Notes: a model not told the origin generated them from the letters alone. 64,000 nt of DNA from an uncultured Alphaproteobacteria bacterium (GCA_963794655.1 CAWCEV010000007.1:15708-79707); one strand, 5' to 3'. Counted from the stretch's first letter, positions 7,365 through 16,539 are shown. Numbers and translations are program-made.

Positions 7365-7841
7365 AAACGGCCGGCAAAGACAGCTGCCAGCTCAGGCGTA
7401 CTTGCCGCCTCCGTATGTTTTGAGCCATTCGGCCGCCTCATGCTCCACCCAGGCGACAGCCTCGGCCCTCCTCGTGAATGCTGCACGGCCGTGTGGCGGC
7501 GTGACGCGCACATGCCAACCCCTTTCCGCTTTTCGATTCTTTCAGCGTGGAAGGCATCGAGGAACTATGGGGCGCACCGCACCAGAATGCCAGAATGAAA
7601 TTTCTTTCCCTGAGTCAAAGCACCGGAGAACACGCATGGAGCCAATGGACCTATTGGCGGACACGCGACGATGTCTGGACGCTGCGATCGGGCAGCCAGC
7701 AGCGATTGAAGTCGGCGCTCCGATCGCCAACCCTCTGAAGATAGGGGACGCAATCGCCCCTCACGGGTTGTAGCAAGCGCGCGCAAGCTATTGATGGCAG
7801 CAGCGAACGGTTGATTTGACCCCGTTCGCCAAGCCGTCGCG

Positions 7842-7935
7842 GAATGACCGCTATTTGCGCATTTGAGACAATGGGCGACGTCTCGAATCGACGTGAAGCA
7901 GACATTGCGGATCGCGGCCGTGGACGTTGCAACTG
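7842..7935 (+). repeat. dispersed two-box repeat, most complete copy
   Basis: Box 1 GAATGACCGCTATTTGCGCA at 7842..7861 and box 2 CGACGTGAAGCAGACATT at 7889..7906. A tail (GCGGATCGCGGCCGTGGACG...AGGGC) follows that also aligns with 13506..13560. Confidence 0.6.
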
Positions 7936-10043: not shown

Positions 10044-10150
10044 AAAACCCGGCTTGTCGTCGGATTTACCGATCGATAACGATGGACTCTCGAGGACGTA
10101 GCCCAGCAAAGTGCTCCTTAGTCCAACGACCACTTCGCGGCGCCGGACTC

Positions 10151-10205
10151 GAATGCCCGCTATTTGCGCCAAGGCGACGGCTGGAGTCGACGTTAAGCAG
10201 CCATT
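10151..10205 (+). repeat. dispersed two-box repeat copy
   Basis: GAATGCCCGCTATTTGCGCC at 10151..10170 and CGACGTTAAGCAGCCATT at 10188..10205, between the two cyclase genes. Confidence 0.6.
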
Positions 10206-10265: not shown

Positions 10266-12200
10266 TCATCCTTCCGGTACTCCCGCCTTGCGCATGCCTC
10301 CCTCCAGAAATTCGCCCTGCGGTCCGCCGCTGAGAAAGCGACGGATCGAGAAGCCCGGATCGAGCGCCAGCCCGGCTTTGGCCTCGGCCTGCGCCTCTTC
10401 CAGTTTTCCAAGGTTCGCCAGCGTTGCGGCAAGGAAGAAATGGGTAAGCGGGTTGGTTCGATTATTCTCGATCGAGCGGCGATACAATGCGACTGCCTCC
10501 TCTTCGGCGCCCAAGTTCATCTTTGCGGCGCCTGCGAAGTGCAGCCAGAGCCAGGCGAAACTGTCGCGCGGAGAGAGACGCAAAGCTTCGTTTTCATGGG
10601 TTCCGGTTTCTTCGGGGTGACCGACGAATATCTTGGCGAGACCAATGAACCCGTGGGCAGTGGCCAAGTTCGGATCGAGCGCCAAGGCTCGCTCGAATTC
10701 GGCGACGCCCTGGTCCGCGCGCTTGGTCTCGATCAGGATGCCGCCCATGATCTCGTGGGCCAGAGCATCATTTGGCCTTAGAGAAAGCACCTTAGCGATC
10801 GCGGTTTCGGCCGCTGCGAGCCGGGCTTCCCTGTCGTCCGACAGTAAGGCTGCGCCCACCGAATAATCGACCCGTCCCACTCCGAGCAGCGCGTCGAGGT
10901 TGTTGGGATCGAGCGCCAGGGCGCGTTCAAAATAGCCGCGTGCGTGCGTCATATTCTCGATGTTGATACCCTTGTTGAGCGCGGCCAGTCCTTGAAAGAA
11001 GAGGTCCATGGAATCGGGATTCGATGCTCGTTCGGCCCGATGCGCCTCGGCCGACGTCAGTTCCGTCCCCAGTTGGTTGGCGAGGCGGGCGACGATCTCG
11101 TCCTGCATTTCGAAGAGATCCGCCAGAGGCTTGTCGAAGCGTTCGGCCCAGAGATGCTTGCCGCTTTCAGCGTCAATGAGTTGGACGTTGACGCGCATGC
11201 GGCTGGCGTCGCGCTGGACAGACCCTTCAAGCACATAGCGGACCCCGAGTTCCTTGCCGATTTCCCGAGTATCGAGATTCTTGCCCTTGAACGTGAAGGC
11301 GGTATTGCGGGCGATAACGAAGGAGCCGCCGAGACGCGACAGGTCGGTGGTCAAGTTCTCTGTAAGTCCGTCGGCGAAATAGTCTTGGCTCTGGTCGTTG
11401 GAGAGATTGGCGAACGGCAGCACAACGATGGACAGATGCTTGGCTTCAGCAGGCGTCGTTGGGTTCGAAGCAACCGGCGCGGGCGCTGTTCTCTCGACAA
11501 GAGTCGGCCGGTAGTTTCCGAGGAGCCACCACGCCCCGCACGCCAGAACGATCAGCAAAACCGCGACACCCGCGGCGAGCCGCGCCAGCGGGGAGCGCAT
11601 TTTTGGCGCGACGAGTCCTGACGGCACGGGTTTCGCCTCGGCAGGGACGCCCACTTGCAGCGAATAGACCCGGATCGATCTTTCGATGTTTTTGAGCTGG
11701 GTCGGGCCGAGATCGGTGACTTCCATGTCGAGCCTGCCGATGACCTGACGATAGGCGTCCTCAGAGAGACAGATCGCGCCTGGCGCGGCCACCCCCTCGA
11801 GTCGGGCGGCGATATTGACCCCGTCACCCATCAGATCGCCGTCAGCCTCCTCAACAACATCACCGAGGTGGATGCCGATACGAAATTCGATGCGTTGCTC
11901 CGGTGGCAGCCCGGAATTGCGCCCAATCATGCCTTGCTGGATTTCGACGGCGCAGCGCACGGCGTCGACGACGCTACGGAACTCGACGAGCGCGCCATCG
12001 CCAGTCAGCTTAACGGTGCGGCCATGATGCAGGGCGATGGTCGGGTCGGTGAGGTCGCCGCGCAAAGCCCGGAGCCGCGCTAGCGTCCGGTCCTCATCGG
12101 CCCCGGCGAGTCGGCTGTAGCCGACCACGTCGGCGACCGGGATCGCAGCGATCTTGCGCGTCTCGCCCACGGCGAACCTCTCCGCCTGGAAGACTAGCAT
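10266..12200 (-). CDS. class III adenylate/guanylate cyclase with TM segment and TPR repeats (tandem paralogue)
   Basis: 644 aa, colinear with 8073..10043 and highly similar along the whole length (same cyclase motifs; same C-terminal ...KAGVPEG). Confidence 0.9.
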   Translation of the reverse strand: MLVFQAERFAVGETRKIAAIPVADVVGYSRLAGADEDRTLARLRALRGDLTDPTIALHHGRTVKLTGDGALVEFRSVVDAVRCAVEIQQGMIGRNSGLPPEQRIEFRIGIHLGDVVEEADGDLMGDGVNIAARLEGVAAPGAICLSEDAYRQVIGRLDMEVTDLGPTQLKNIERSIRVYSLQVGVPAEAKPVPSGLVAPKMRSPLARLAAGVAVLLIVLACGAWWLLGNYRPTLVERTAPAPVASNPTTPAEAKHLSIVVLPFANLSNDQSQDYFADGLTENLTTDLSRLGGSFVIARNTAFTFKGKNLDTREIGKELGVRYVLEGSVQRDASRMRVNVQLIDAESGKHLWAERFDKPLADLFEMQDEIVARLANQLGTELTSAEAHRAERASNPDSMDLFFQGLAALNKGINIENMTHARGYFERALALDPNNLDALLGVGRVDYSVGAALLSDDREARLAAAETAIAKVLSLRPNDALAHEIMGGILIETKRADQGVAEFERALALDPNLATAHGFIGLAKIFVGHPEETGTHENEALRLSPRDSFAWLWLHFAGAAKMNLGAEEEAVALYRRSIENNRTNPLTHFFLAATLANLGKLEEAQAEAKAGLALDPGFSIRRFLSGGPQGEFLEGGMRKAGVPEG

Positions 12201-12209
12201 GAAAGACTC

Positions 12210-12229
12210 GAATGACCGCTAATTGCGCA
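12210..12229 (+). repeat. dispersed repeat, box 1 copy
   Basis: GAATGACCGCTAATTGCGCA, 9 nt upstream (on the minus strand) of the cyclase-2 ATG. Confidence 0.55.
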
Positions 12230-12719: not shown

Positions 12720-12734
12720 CCACCCTGTCGGCGC

Positions 12735-12796
12735 GTGACCGCTATTGCGCATTCCGGCCGGCTGGAGTCGGTAGAGTCGAAGTGTGGCGCGGTGAC
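12735..12796 (+). repeat. dispersed repeat copy (box 1 + degenerate box 2) abutting the intron 3' side
   Basis: GTGACCGCTATTGCGCA at 12735..12751; GGCTGGAGTCG is shared with the 10151 copy; GTGACGTTAGGCC resembles box 2. Confidence 0.5.
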
Positions 12797-13505
12797 GTTA
12801 GGCCGAGCATGTCTGTTTCCGCCCCTTTCGTCTGGCGGTGCCTTAGTGGCTCAACCGTAGCTCCGTTTCCACACCCCGCTCATCGAACCGGACATGCGGA
12901 TTTCCCGCATCCGGCTCTCGGACAAGACCTCACGCCGTCTATCGCGTGCGACGCCGTCGGCGACTTCTGAACATCATGCGGAGTTGATAGGTTTCCCAAT
13001 CTCCATGTCCTTCGCCACGTGCTGCGTCTGTCTTGAACTGAGGCCCCTTCCCTCCGCCGCAGTTACCCGGTTTCCGCGGTACTACGAACCTCTCCGCCAC
13101 CCCAGAGCGCCCAGCCTGTCCCTCACGGGCGTCCGGTTGGTCCTGTCATCCCTGACCTGACCACGCTTTGGGGCTTCCCGTGTTGCGCGCGCTTTCCTTG
13201 TGTACGTGCTGCCGCCACTACCCCGGTGCAGCGGCTGGGCGTCGTCCTCGCTCATCTCACCCAGCCTTAACAGCCTTCCCCGATAACGTTGTCGGGTCGG
13301 CCTGCACATCGTCCTTTTCGAGGCCTGCTCAGCGTTCACTCGCGTTGCGGCCCGCACACTCGCGCGGTCACCTATACGTGACCTGCTACACCGAAGGCTT
13401 CAGCCACTTCGTTACCTCCATGGCTGCTCCGGTTGCTTCCGGCTGGAGCGGTCGCCGGGTGGGGCTTGCACCCACTGGAAAGCGCCGCCTTGTCACGGCG
13501 CACAC
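12797..13505 (-). mobile_element. ORF-less group II intron
   Basis: On the minus strand it starts GTGTGCGCCGTGACAAGG... at 13505 (GUGCG at 13503) and carries a canonical domain V at 12917..12885. At the domain IV position only a 10-codon stub remains (AAGGACATGGAG..., MEIGKPINSA*), and no reverse-transcriptase ORF is present in any frame. The 3' end is uncertain: 12797 (..GGCCTAAC, from repeat alignment) or about 12838 (..CTAAGGCAC). Confidence 0.75.
12885..12917 (-). ncRNA. group II intron domain V
   Basis: GAGCCGGAUGCGGGAAAUCCGCAUGUCCGGUUC, compared with the consensus GAGCCGUAUGCGAUGAAAGUCGCACGUACGGUUC. The AGC triad, the 2-nt bulge and the GAAA loop are all present. Confidence 0.85.
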
Positions 13506-13560
13506 GTTTAGCGGACATCCCGGATCGTTGCCGCGAACGCCCCGGACAATCAGAAGGGCT
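13506..13560 (+). repeat. dispersed repeat fragment (box 2 + tail) abutting the intron 5' side
   Basis: GTTTAGCGGACATCCCGGATCGTTGCCGCGAACG...AGAAGGGC aligns with 7896..7940 (GACAT-3nt-GGATCG-3nt-CCG.G.ACG...AGGGC). Confidence 0.45.
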
Positions 13561-13645: not shown

Positions 13646-14764
13646 TTATGACTCTGAAGGTCGAAGACGCGCGAGGAGTCCGGCGAGTTCGGCTTGGCGG
13701 CGGGTGTTCGTCTTGGCAAACACGGCTTTCAACTGGGTGCGGGCGGTCTCTCGGCTCACTCCCACTGAAGCCGCAGCCGAGTCGATCCCGACGCCCGAGG
13801 CCAGTCTTGTGGCCAGTTTGGCCTCGGCGGCTGTCAGCCCAAAGGCGGCGCACAAATTTTTCGAACTGGGCCTCAGCGGCGACCTCAGATCGGTCAGGAG
13901 AAGGATCAGGCGGCCGGGATTGAACAAATCGCTGCCGAACGCCGTGACCGGCATCGCCTCGACCAAGAGCCACGGCGCTTCGTCCCGGTCGACGACGATT
14001 GGCGGATAGGACTGGGCTGCGCCGGGCGAGATATGCAAGGCCGTCGAAACCAGCTGCTGCAATCGGCGATTGCTGGCTGGGTCATGGGCCGCAGGACGAC
14101 CCCGGACCAGGTAGAAGTCGGCGCCAAGCAGATCTTGCGCGGGCAGATTCATCTGGGCTGCGCGGCCGGTCGCGTCGAGAATGACGGCGGCGGAGCTGAC
14201 TCGCTCCAGCGCTGAAAGCTTCGAGGCGGTGTCGAAAGCCGCAAACTTCTGGGCCAGACTGACGATTTTGGCGAGATAGGGACCGACCTTGCCGACGCGT
14301 GTCGCGTCTTCCGGCGTAAACGGGTCGTCTCCGCGGTAGAAGCCCATGCACCAGTCGCCGCCGTCGACTGAGAAAAACGAGGCCGCGAACCACTCCCGCT
14401 TCTCCGGTCGCGCCGTCTCAAGAAAGAAGGGCAGCGTACGGCGCTCTTCCTCCGTCGAGAGGTCGTGCTCCAGGGCTGAGGTCTGACCCGCCCGTATGAA
14501 CGATGTGCAACGCTCAAGGTACCGCCCGATATGCGGGTCTGGAGCATGACCCTGGTTGCGGACCCAGCGGTCAAAAAACGCCTCGTGTCCCACGGACATC
14601 GGCGCCGGCGCGGGCGAGTTGTCGCGATCGTGCTCGAAGAAAGTGCTGCTGGCGCCGCCGAACAATTCAGCGAGCGATTGCAGCGCCGCGCCCCATCGCG
14701 CCGGCGACAGGATCGCATCGTGGCAAGCCTCGAGAGCGCGCTCCGTTCGCGCTGACAGAAGCAT
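13646..14764 (-). CDS. LuxR-family transcriptional regulator
   Basis: 372 aa with a C-terminal GerE-type HTH (FGLTAAEAKLATRLASGVGIDSAAASVGVSRETARTQLKAVFAKTNTRRQAEL) and an N-terminal sensor-like domain. Confidence 0.85.
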   Translation of the reverse strand: MLLSARTERALEACHDAILSPARWGAALQSLAELFGGASSTFFEHDRDNSPAPAPMSVGHEAFFDRWVRNQGHAPDPHIGRYLERCTSFIRAGQTSALEHDLSTEEERRTLPFFLETARPEKREWFAASFFSVDGGDWCMGFYRGDDPFTPEDATRVGKVGPYLAKIVSLAQKFAAFDTASKLSALERVSSAAVILDATGRAAQMNLPAQDLLGADFYLVRGRPAAHDPASNRRLQQLVSTALHISPGAAQSYPPIVVDRDEAPWLLVEAMPVTAFGSDLFNPGRLILLLTDLRSPLRPSSKNLCAAFGLTAAEAKLATRLASGVGIDSAAASVGVSRETARTQLKAVFAKTNTRRQAELAGLLARLRPSES

Positions 14765-16519: not shown

Positions 16520-16539
16520 GAATGACCGATATTTGCGCA
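16520..16539 (+). repeat. dispersed repeat, box 1 copy
   Basis: GAATGACCGATATTTGCGCA, directly at the 5' breakpoint of the truncated cyclase/TPR remnant. Confidence 0.55.

Follow-up and report, generated by a model that had tools for sequence, protein, structure and literature searches.

An ORF-Less Group II Intron in an Intergenic Repeat of an Uncultured Alphaproteobacterium, Probably Mobilized in Trans

We found a complete group II intron that has lost its open reading frame (ORF) in a 64-kb stretch of DNA from an uncultured alphaproteobacterium (the whole stretch is referred to as the window). The intron is 733 nt long, occupies positions 13503..12771 of the minus strand, starts with 5' GUGCG and ends with CUAC 3'; it was delimited by Rfam matches, by the limits of homology with more than 30 other copies, and by empty target sites. 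Considering its structure, its target site, and its relatives in other genomes, we regard it as a nonautonomous retroelement that was mobilized in trans and was already ORF-less when it inserted (probability about 0.8). The lineage is new, but the kind is already known, the precedent being the ORF-less introns of Thermosynechococcus.

Identity and Boundaries of the Intron

The 64 kb were searched with Rfam cmscan at gathering thresholds. Only two matches were returned, both on the minus strand: group-II-D1D4-4 (RF02003) at 13477..13340, covering the entire model (101.4 bits, E = 1.8e-21), and the D5/D6 model Intron_gpII (RF00029) at 12919..12845 (42.6 bits, gathering score 40). The extra matches of a looser scan were plastid D5 models only, and all of them fell on the same domain V hairpin. 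The 731-nt stretch was predicted to fold at -322 kcal/mol, compared with -296 +/- 6.5 kcal/mol for shuffled sequences (z = -4.08), and none of 20 shuffles of the intron region was equally stable. An earlier note, made from the sequence alone, had proposed that the minus strand holds a group II intron without an ORF, and had named RF00029 and the group-II-D1D4 models as the check. Both kinds of model match significantly, above their gathering scores, and no reverse transcriptase (RT) is encoded, so the proposal was borne out. The same is true of its view that the ORFs listed over 12.78-13.5 kb are translations of structured RNA.

The limits of the element had to be revised. The span proposed before, 13505..12797, is replaced by 13503..12771, based on empty sites and family homology. 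Homology between copies begins at GTGTGCGCC and stops at ...CTCTAC; with the 30 or more copies compared it reaches 12771, and the 3' exon opens with C at 12770. Three empty targets (two in the window and one in L071) read ...AC GT|CGAYTCC, and occupied sites read ...AC GT[GTGCG...CTCTAC]CGAYTCC. Because these three comparisons fix the insertion point, the intron must run from 13503 to 12771, with a 5' splice site GU|GUGCG in which the preceding GU is exonic. The termini, GUGCG at 13503 and ...UAC at 12771, fit the group II pattern of 5' GUGYG and 3' AY, and the predicted exon-exon join on the minus strand is ...GCUAAACGU|CGACUCCAGCC.... Two other placements were discarded. GUGUG at 13505 as the 5' end was ruled out by the empty sites and by covariation of the exon-binding site EBS1, and a 3' end at 12797, or at 12845 where the Rfam D6 match ends, is contradicted by homology and covariation, which carry domain VI to 12774 and the intron to 12771.

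Ribozyme Fold

A consensus structure was built with RNAalifold from 35 copies, comprising 30 ORF-less introns and 5 full-length introns with the ORF cut out. It contains 205 pairs, 58 of them with double-sided covariation. Canonical pairing per domain was 98-99.6%, and it fell to 32-63% when the 3' partners were shifted by one column. The folding of domains I-VI around the domain V candidate, which the earlier note had suggested, therefore succeeds with the support of covariation.

Domain I (13189..13500, minus strand as for all the domains) includes the RF02003 match at 13477..13340 and has 90 pairs, of which 99.2% were canonical (about 37% in the shifted controls) and 27 showed double-sided covariation. 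Alignment and the consensus fold place domain II at 13096..13180, where the 10-nt insertion UCAGGGAUGA serves as the marker of the window-type subfamily; the consensus places domain III at 13039..13092. A remnant of domain IV (33 pairs, 98.4% canonical) lies at 12923..13035, as defined by a three-way alignment, tblastn, and the ltrA start of Paraburkholderia fungorum. Domain V, GAGCCGGAUGCGGGAAAUCCGCAUGUCCGGUUC, was recognized by the RF00029 match and the consensus at 12885..12917 (13 pairs, 99.6% canonical, 4 covarying). Its position at 12917..12885, its AGC triad, and its 2-nt bulge had been described correctly, but the loop is a 5-nt GAAAU and not a strict GAAA tetraloop.

Domain VI is an unusually long, branched helix at 12774..12881, supported by covariation in the 35 copies (29 pairs, 98.1% canonical, 11 with double-sided covariation). 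It consists of a 3-bp basal helix, a bulged A, a 9-10-bp helix, and a branched insertion of about 80 nt as a cap. The branch point is this bulged A, at 12777, which lies 7 nt before the 3' end and is invariant in 35 of 35 copies. The Rfam alignment of domain VI, which ends at 12845, is a misfit; the real domain runs from 12881 to 12774. This domain also varies within the family. In metagenome-assembled genome (MAG) MFD02248.bin.2.61 (L005, L064, L023, L021, L028, L025, L017, and L066), the ORF-less copies align to the window intron only as far as position 646 and diverge within the domain VI insertion, but the full-length copy of the same MAG aligns to the end. To judge from the alignments, these ORF-less copies look like a subfamily with another D6 cap.

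It is most improbable that the element is a piece of a longer intron with an ORF, separated from the rest by rearrangement, or that a hairpin resembling domain V arose here by chance. Nothing beyond the absence of an ORF speaks for either idea, whereas the two halves of the ribozyme are contiguous and of full length relative to their relatives, two Rfam models pass, and all six domains covary.

Homing Site and Exon Recognition

The homing site is inside an intergenic repeat that measures about 100 bp. The window contains four occurrences of the repeat's core, GCGCAAATAGCGGTCATTC (7842-7860, 10151-10169, 12210-12228, and 16520-16538), where 0.02 are expected by chance, and all four are on the minus strand. 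The repeat also has an inverted AATG(T/A)C(C/T)GCT arm, and its orientation is always that of the neighboring minus-strand genes. Directly after the intron there is a degenerate copy of the core (12727-12745, minus strand). The intron thus separates a 3' half of the repeat at 12727..12770 (CGACUCCAGCCG...GCGCAAUAGCGGUCA) from a 5' half at 13504..13545, the latter resembling both the 5' flanks of window-type copies and the empty copies in the window. Repeat comparison located these two empty copies on the minus strand at 7824..7927 (...GCAATGTCTGCTTCACGT|CGATTCGAGACG...GCGCAAATAGCGGTCATTC) and 10150..10190 (...AATGGCTGCTTAACGT|CGACTCCAGCCGTC...). The element could not be assigned to any named repeat family. 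Copies of the repeat also flank, on both sides, a gene for an adenylate/guanylate cyclase with C-terminal TPR repeats (PF00211 plus TPR families; 10266-12200, minus strand).

The last 6 nt of the 5' exon, AAACGU (13504..13509), form the intron-binding site IBS1, which makes 5 contiguous base pairs from the splice site with EBS1 (5 of the 6 IBS1 positions). EBS1, ACGUUA at 13284..13289, was located by exon-intron covariation within the 8-nt loop of a hairpin with the stem CCCGA/UCGGG. IBS2, UGUCC at 13513..13517, pairs over 5 bp with EBS2, GGACG at 13310..13314. Two other candidates for EBS2, CGGACG near 13135 and GGACAG near 13120, were dropped in favor of GGACG at 13314..13310, which sits upstream of EBS1 and shows compensatory changes. 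The first base of the 3' exon, C12770, is a candidate IBS3, and 28 of the 30 copies have C at this position; no EBS3 partner for it was found.

The pairing is maintained in the other copies. In the corrected register, IBS1 and EBS1 form 4-7 contiguous base pairs from the splice site in most copies (mean 4.5 bp). Exons ending in GU pair with an EBS1 starting with AC, and the three copies with a GC exon end have an EBS1 starting with GC. Covariation of exon and intron at two positions holds in 28 of 30 copies. Because the exon GU/GC covaries with the first two bases of EBS1, the 5' splice register at 13503 is confirmed independently. There are four variants of EBS1 (ACGUUAU, ACCCUUU, GCAAUUU, and GCCAUAU/C) and three of EBS2 (GGACG/A, GGUCG, and GGAUG), and each fits its own exons. 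Compensation between EBS2 and IBS2 was found in L039 and L056 (GGUCG/UGACC) and in L033 (GGAUG/CGUCU). Since the variants match their own exons, the ORF-less copies themselves were evidently inserted by base-pair-guided reverse splicing, with retargeting.

The intron lies between convergent genes, 142 nt past the stop codon of a gene for a 372-aa regulator (13646-14764, minus strand) and on the same strand. The regulator had been called LuxR. Its place relative to the intron was right, but the label rests on the names of homologs: JGI and NCBI name over 200 close homologs as CsgD-family or HTH regulators, and no Pfam match at E <= 1e-3 was obtained for the protein, its HTH-like C-terminal part included. 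This neighborhood could suggest a domesticated RNA, that is, a 3'-UTR or regulatory element co-opted by the adjacent CsgD/LuxR-like gene. A scan of the intron's strand found neither promoter-like nor terminator-like signals, and with no terminator-like signal between the regulator and the intron such an arrangement is conceivable. However, the copies adjoin unrelated genes in every genome, conservation tracks the pairing of the ribozyme and not the locus, and the closest ortholog of the regulator (98% identical) has neither the intron nor any of the downstream region. We therefore consider domestication very unlikely. A clean orthologous empty site was not found, the regulator homologs (98% and about 80% identical) diverging 56 nt past the stop codon.

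Distribution of the ORF-Less Family

To count the family, a pattern spanning the ORF-deletion junction was searched in a single genome for each GTDB species; the genomes with matches do not include that of the window. The same junction was found at 64 loci in 26 assemblies, with at most 11 matches per genome, a number reached in two MAGs. The carriers were mostly MAGs of soil Alphaproteobacteria, together with a few MAGs of Betaproteobacteria, Gammaproteobacteria, and Acidobacteria. Two isolates, Bradyrhizobium sp. Ash2021 and B. erythrophlei GAS478, contain copies, the latter being one of the genomes matched by the pattern, and the other evidence comes mostly from MAGs. In addition, blastn against plasmids matched 223 records, and an ORF-less copy on a plasmid of Bradyrhizobium sp. 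Ash2021 matched from end to end (99% coverage, 86.6% identity). Such introns had been called uncommon in bacteria, and a review agrees (PMC4424553), but the present lineage is abundant.

In 30 complete copies the flanks were unrelated except for the 5'-exon motif A(A/C)UGUCCG(C/U)U and the C of the 3' exon. Copies at separate sites of the same genome were 99.7-100% identical, which indicates recent proliferation.

Several copies are themselves interrupted or reduced. Five ORF-less copies in MAG MFD04463.bin.1.206 (L022, with the insert at 811-2361, L014, L034, L042, and L004) are all interrupted near intron position 185. In the first four, the insert is an element of the IS110 family, 1552 bp long, with a gene for a 387-aa DEDD transposase (PF02371/PF01548); the insert of L004 is larger. 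Either this element targets the intron sequence specifically, or a composite of intron and insertion sequence multiplies as a unit. In B. erythrophlei GAS478, an ORF-less copy (L015, 1418-3059) carries an insertion of about 0.9 kb that divides it near intron position 459. On plasmid pHR1a of Novosphingobium resinovorum, a shortened member of about 840 bp (L070, 1501-2344) has lost internal parts of domains I-IV, and a gene for an IS110-family transposase adjoins it. Finally, nested and fragmented group II introns matching RF02003, RF02005, and RF01999 lie within about 5 kb in MAG MFD05377.bin.2.82 (L053, 1800-6500), which suggests introns homing into introns.

Full-Length Relatives and Loss of the ORF

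Full-length introns with an ltrA gene were found in Microvirga ossetica, P. fungorum and other Paraburkholderia, Sinorhizobium fredii GR64, and a plasmid of Bradyrhizobium sp. Ash2021. In the 5' part they match only the first ~580 nt of the window intron (84-88%), and its last ~170 nt are matched separately; over domains I-III and V-VI the identity is 85-88%. RefSeq annotates their ltrA product as a group II intron reverse transcriptase/maturase. They share with the window copy the ribozyme lineage (RF02003, D1D4-4 type), the long D6, and the 5'-exon motif; unlike it, they carry an ORF for an RT/maturase of 427-443 aa. According to Pfam, the only domains of this intron-encoded protein (IEP) are RVT_1 and GIIM; an endonuclease (En) domain is absent. 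It is not a class D (RmInt1-like) protein, because the C-terminal class D motif LX3AX3PXLF[V/A]HW (PMC4615759) is absent from it. A link to the E.c./S.f. reference introns was not obtained, the matches in E. coli genomes being too short (26% coverage, about 70% identity), and papers dealing with classes E and F offered no sequence criterion by which the ORF could be classified. A long structured D6 has been noted for IIF introns (PMC3753933), and that of the present family recalls them, as a resemblance only.

When the window was searched by tblastn with the IEP of a relative, only a 19-aa N-terminal remnant was found, at 12999..12943, in agreement with the earlier claim that no frame encodes an RT; together with the Rfam scan, the search revealed no IEP gene elsewhere in the 64 kb. 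Domain IV keeps an SD-like AAGGA (13013..13009), the IEP start codon UUG (12999..12997), about 19 IEP codons, and a deletion junction near 12939. The UUG is 9 nt after the AAGGA, at the same position as the annotated ltrA start in P. fungorum. The 10-codon stub MEIGKPINSA, noted before where the maturase gene would be expected, is not the maturase remnant: its frame differs from that of the IEP, and its AUG is CUG in the relatives aligned.

A three-way alignment of the window intron, the Ash2021 copy, and the full-length Microvirga intron showed that about 1260 bp of the domain IV ORF are missing from the first two. In the window copy both halves of the ribozyme are present and contiguous, and the deletion is clean and internal, as opposed to the broken 3' part of a longer intron that the earlier note had considered. 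It falls between two 8-nt direct repeats, GCGAAGGC, one at either end of the ORF, which code for ...AKAKA near the N-terminus of the IEP and for ...KA-stop at its C-terminus. Every full-length copy examined has kept them, a 73%-identical outgroup from Xenorhabdus among these. The junction of the window copy, GCGAAAGACGGCGUGA, is 2 nt shorter than a precise repeat junction, and a single base at one position of it differs in the window, L030, and L056.

Could a full-length intron have inserted at this site and lost its ORF here by recombination between the GCGAAGGC repeats, without ever moving as an ORF-less element? The conservation of the repeats would allow it, and the junction occurs in at least three or four slightly different variants, so that ORF loss is recurrent in the lineage. 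In neighbor-joining (NJ) trees, moreover, the remaining ORF-less copies interleave with full-length copies, and the full-length L005 is nested inside the "39-type" ORF-less clade (bootstrap 89%). Against this, junction GCGAAAGACGGCGUGA recurs in 16 further complete copies, which occupy different sites in several genomes, so the deletion predates these insertions. Derived marker substitutions are likewise common to copies at different loci, and the trees unite the window-type ORF-less copies in one clade, sister to the full-length L076 and L077. These two carry the 10-nt domain II marker and came from the metagenomes, where a first pattern for full-length window-type copies retrieved 0 sequences and a second retrieved 3. 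Over the 5' 560 nt, L076 and the window-type copies are 92-94% identical; L077 encodes a complete 443-aa IEP. Deletion at the present site is accordingly improbable, and insertion of an already ORF-less intron is preferred.

For the family as a whole, a single origin of the deletion is not supported, given the several junction variants and the full-length copies nested among ORF-less ones. Because of these variants and of the interleaving in the NJ trees, recurrent loss of the ORF at the conserved direct repeats is apparently the most economical reading; recombination between full-length and ORF-less forms is a possible alternative source of the interleaving. The conserved breakpoints may reflect retention of the IEP-binding site in domain IVa. 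We also entertain a broader hypothesis, to which we give somewhat less than an even chance: the GCGAAGGC repeats might act as a built-in switch that repeatedly excises the IEP ORF precisely and spares the IEP-binding region, and the resulting mini-introns might out-proliferate their parents across many soil Alphaproteobacteria by homing into a REP-like intergenic repeat.

Possible Maturase Source and Activity of the Window Copy

The need for a maturase in trans, already pointed out in the earlier note, is a sound deduction, and it is supported by full-length copies that co-occur with ORF-less ones in other genomes. No related IEP-encoding intron is present in the 64-kb window, and such co-occurrence was found in two other genomes. 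MAG MFD02248.bin.2.61 contains the full-length L005 alongside at least 10 ORF-less copies. On the Ash2021 plasmid, a full-length ltrA intron lies 18 kb from the ORF-less copy, and the two ribozymes are 93-94% identical. Furthermore, the ORF-less introns of Thermosynechococcus elongatus are mobilized by IEPs in trans (PMC2882425), and IEPs of the RmInt1 family cooperate with related intron RNAs in splicing and sometimes in homing (PMC4615759).

We therefore propose the following course of events, which was deduced from sequence comparison. The domain IV RT/maturase gene lost about 1.26 kb, probably in an ancestor, and kept its UUG start with the ribosome-binding site and about 19 codons. The intron RNA would then have been bound by the maturase/RT of a full-length relative elsewhere in the cell, reverse-spliced into ...UGUCC-N3-AAACGU|C... 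of the ~100-bp intergenic repeat, and copied to DNA. Any splicing or further movement of the window copy would require a related IEP in trans. Since regulator and intron share a strand, with the intron in the 3' region of the regulator gene and between convergent genes, read-through could supply the intron RNA, and the host has no need of its splicing.

Whether the window copy is still active is a separate matter, and it may instead be an inert fossil, that is, a genuine ORF-less intron that is no longer spliced or mobile because a compatible maturase is absent or private mutations have inactivated it. The copy does appear relatively old from its sequence: its nearest relative, L043, is 96.3% identical, as against 99.7-100% in recently active bursts, and it has 13 private substitutions and 3 broken consensus pairs. 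The absence of an IEP from the 64-kb window points the same way, and according to reviews derivatized bacterial introns tend to lose activity and not to persist (PMC4424553). On the other hand, 202 of the 205 consensus pairs are canonical in the window copy, equal to the 201-202 of the four closest full-length copies, which are presumably active, and D5, the branch-point A, EBS1, and EBS2 are all intact. ORF-less introns also nearly always accompany related IEP-encoding introns (PMC4424553, PMC3245105), as they do in the two genomes above. On balance we think an inert copy rather unlikely. Both its mobilization in trans and any present activity are inferred from these comparisons.

Comparison with Known Systems

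According to reviews, group II introns without an ORF are rare in bacteria and for the most part immobile. Thermosynechococcus provides the single well-studied example in which they proliferated via a shared trans-acting maturase, and this arrangement has often served as a model for how spliceosomal introns, together with a common splicing machinery, might have arisen. Starting from the window locus, we arrive at a second natural system of much greater breadth, with dozens of ORF-less copies in 26 species-level genomes. If the repeats did act as a switch, trans-mobilized ORF-less introns would be common in mesophilic bacteria and would have been overlooked, since surveys search for the RT. The proposal can be tested directly, since the ribozyme is compact (about 730 nt), its target sites are defined, and there are candidates for the partner IEP. 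For annotation, the intron explains several spurious ORFs at 12.78-13.5 kb, and a repeated intergenic element is now understood as an intron homing site.

The closest parallel is T. elongatus, in which 17 ORF-less introns arose by ORF deletion, proliferated, diverged in their targets, and were mobilized by the IEPs of relatives (PMC2882425). Like these TeI3 introns (Mohr, Ghanem & Lambowitz 2010, PMC2882425), the window family is multicopy, has lost the domain IV ORF with N- and C-terminal remnants left, proliferated after the deletion, diverged in EBS and target, and inserted into repeated or mobile DNA. Mobilization in trans by the IEPs of full-length relatives is known for TeI3 (PMC2882425) and is proposed by inference for the window family. 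The differences concern the lineage, the host (a thermophilic cyanobacterium versus mesophilic soil Alphaproteobacteria), the spread (one genome versus 26 species-level genomes), the loss of the ORF (a single event versus apparently recurrent loss), and the IEP, which in the window family has RT and maturase domains only, by Pfam.

RmInt1 of Sinorhizobium meliloti (class D, IIB), for which a delta-ORF donor plus IEP system exists (PMC4615759), resembles the window family in its range of rhizobial hosts, in having an IEP without an En domain, in homing into DNA that is repeated or mobile, and in the capacity of related IEPs to act in trans on related RNAs. In contrast to RmInt1, the window family does not have the class D motif, and its ORF-less copies are natural, whereas delta-ORF RmInt1 is engineered. 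C.te.I1 of Clostridium tetani (PMC4424553) is also a bacterial group II intron without an IEP, but it is single-copy, lies in a gene, and has no related IEP in the genome, while the window element belongs to a multicopy family with IEP-encoding relatives. In a wider sense, the family resembles MITEs and the SINE/LINE pair, in which a derivative shortened by internal deletion retains the cis sites and employs the protein of its parent. As with MITEs, the derivatives outnumber the parent in some genomes; unlike MITEs, the window family is a ribozyme-based retroelement whose target is chosen by RNA-DNA base pairing (EBS/IBS).
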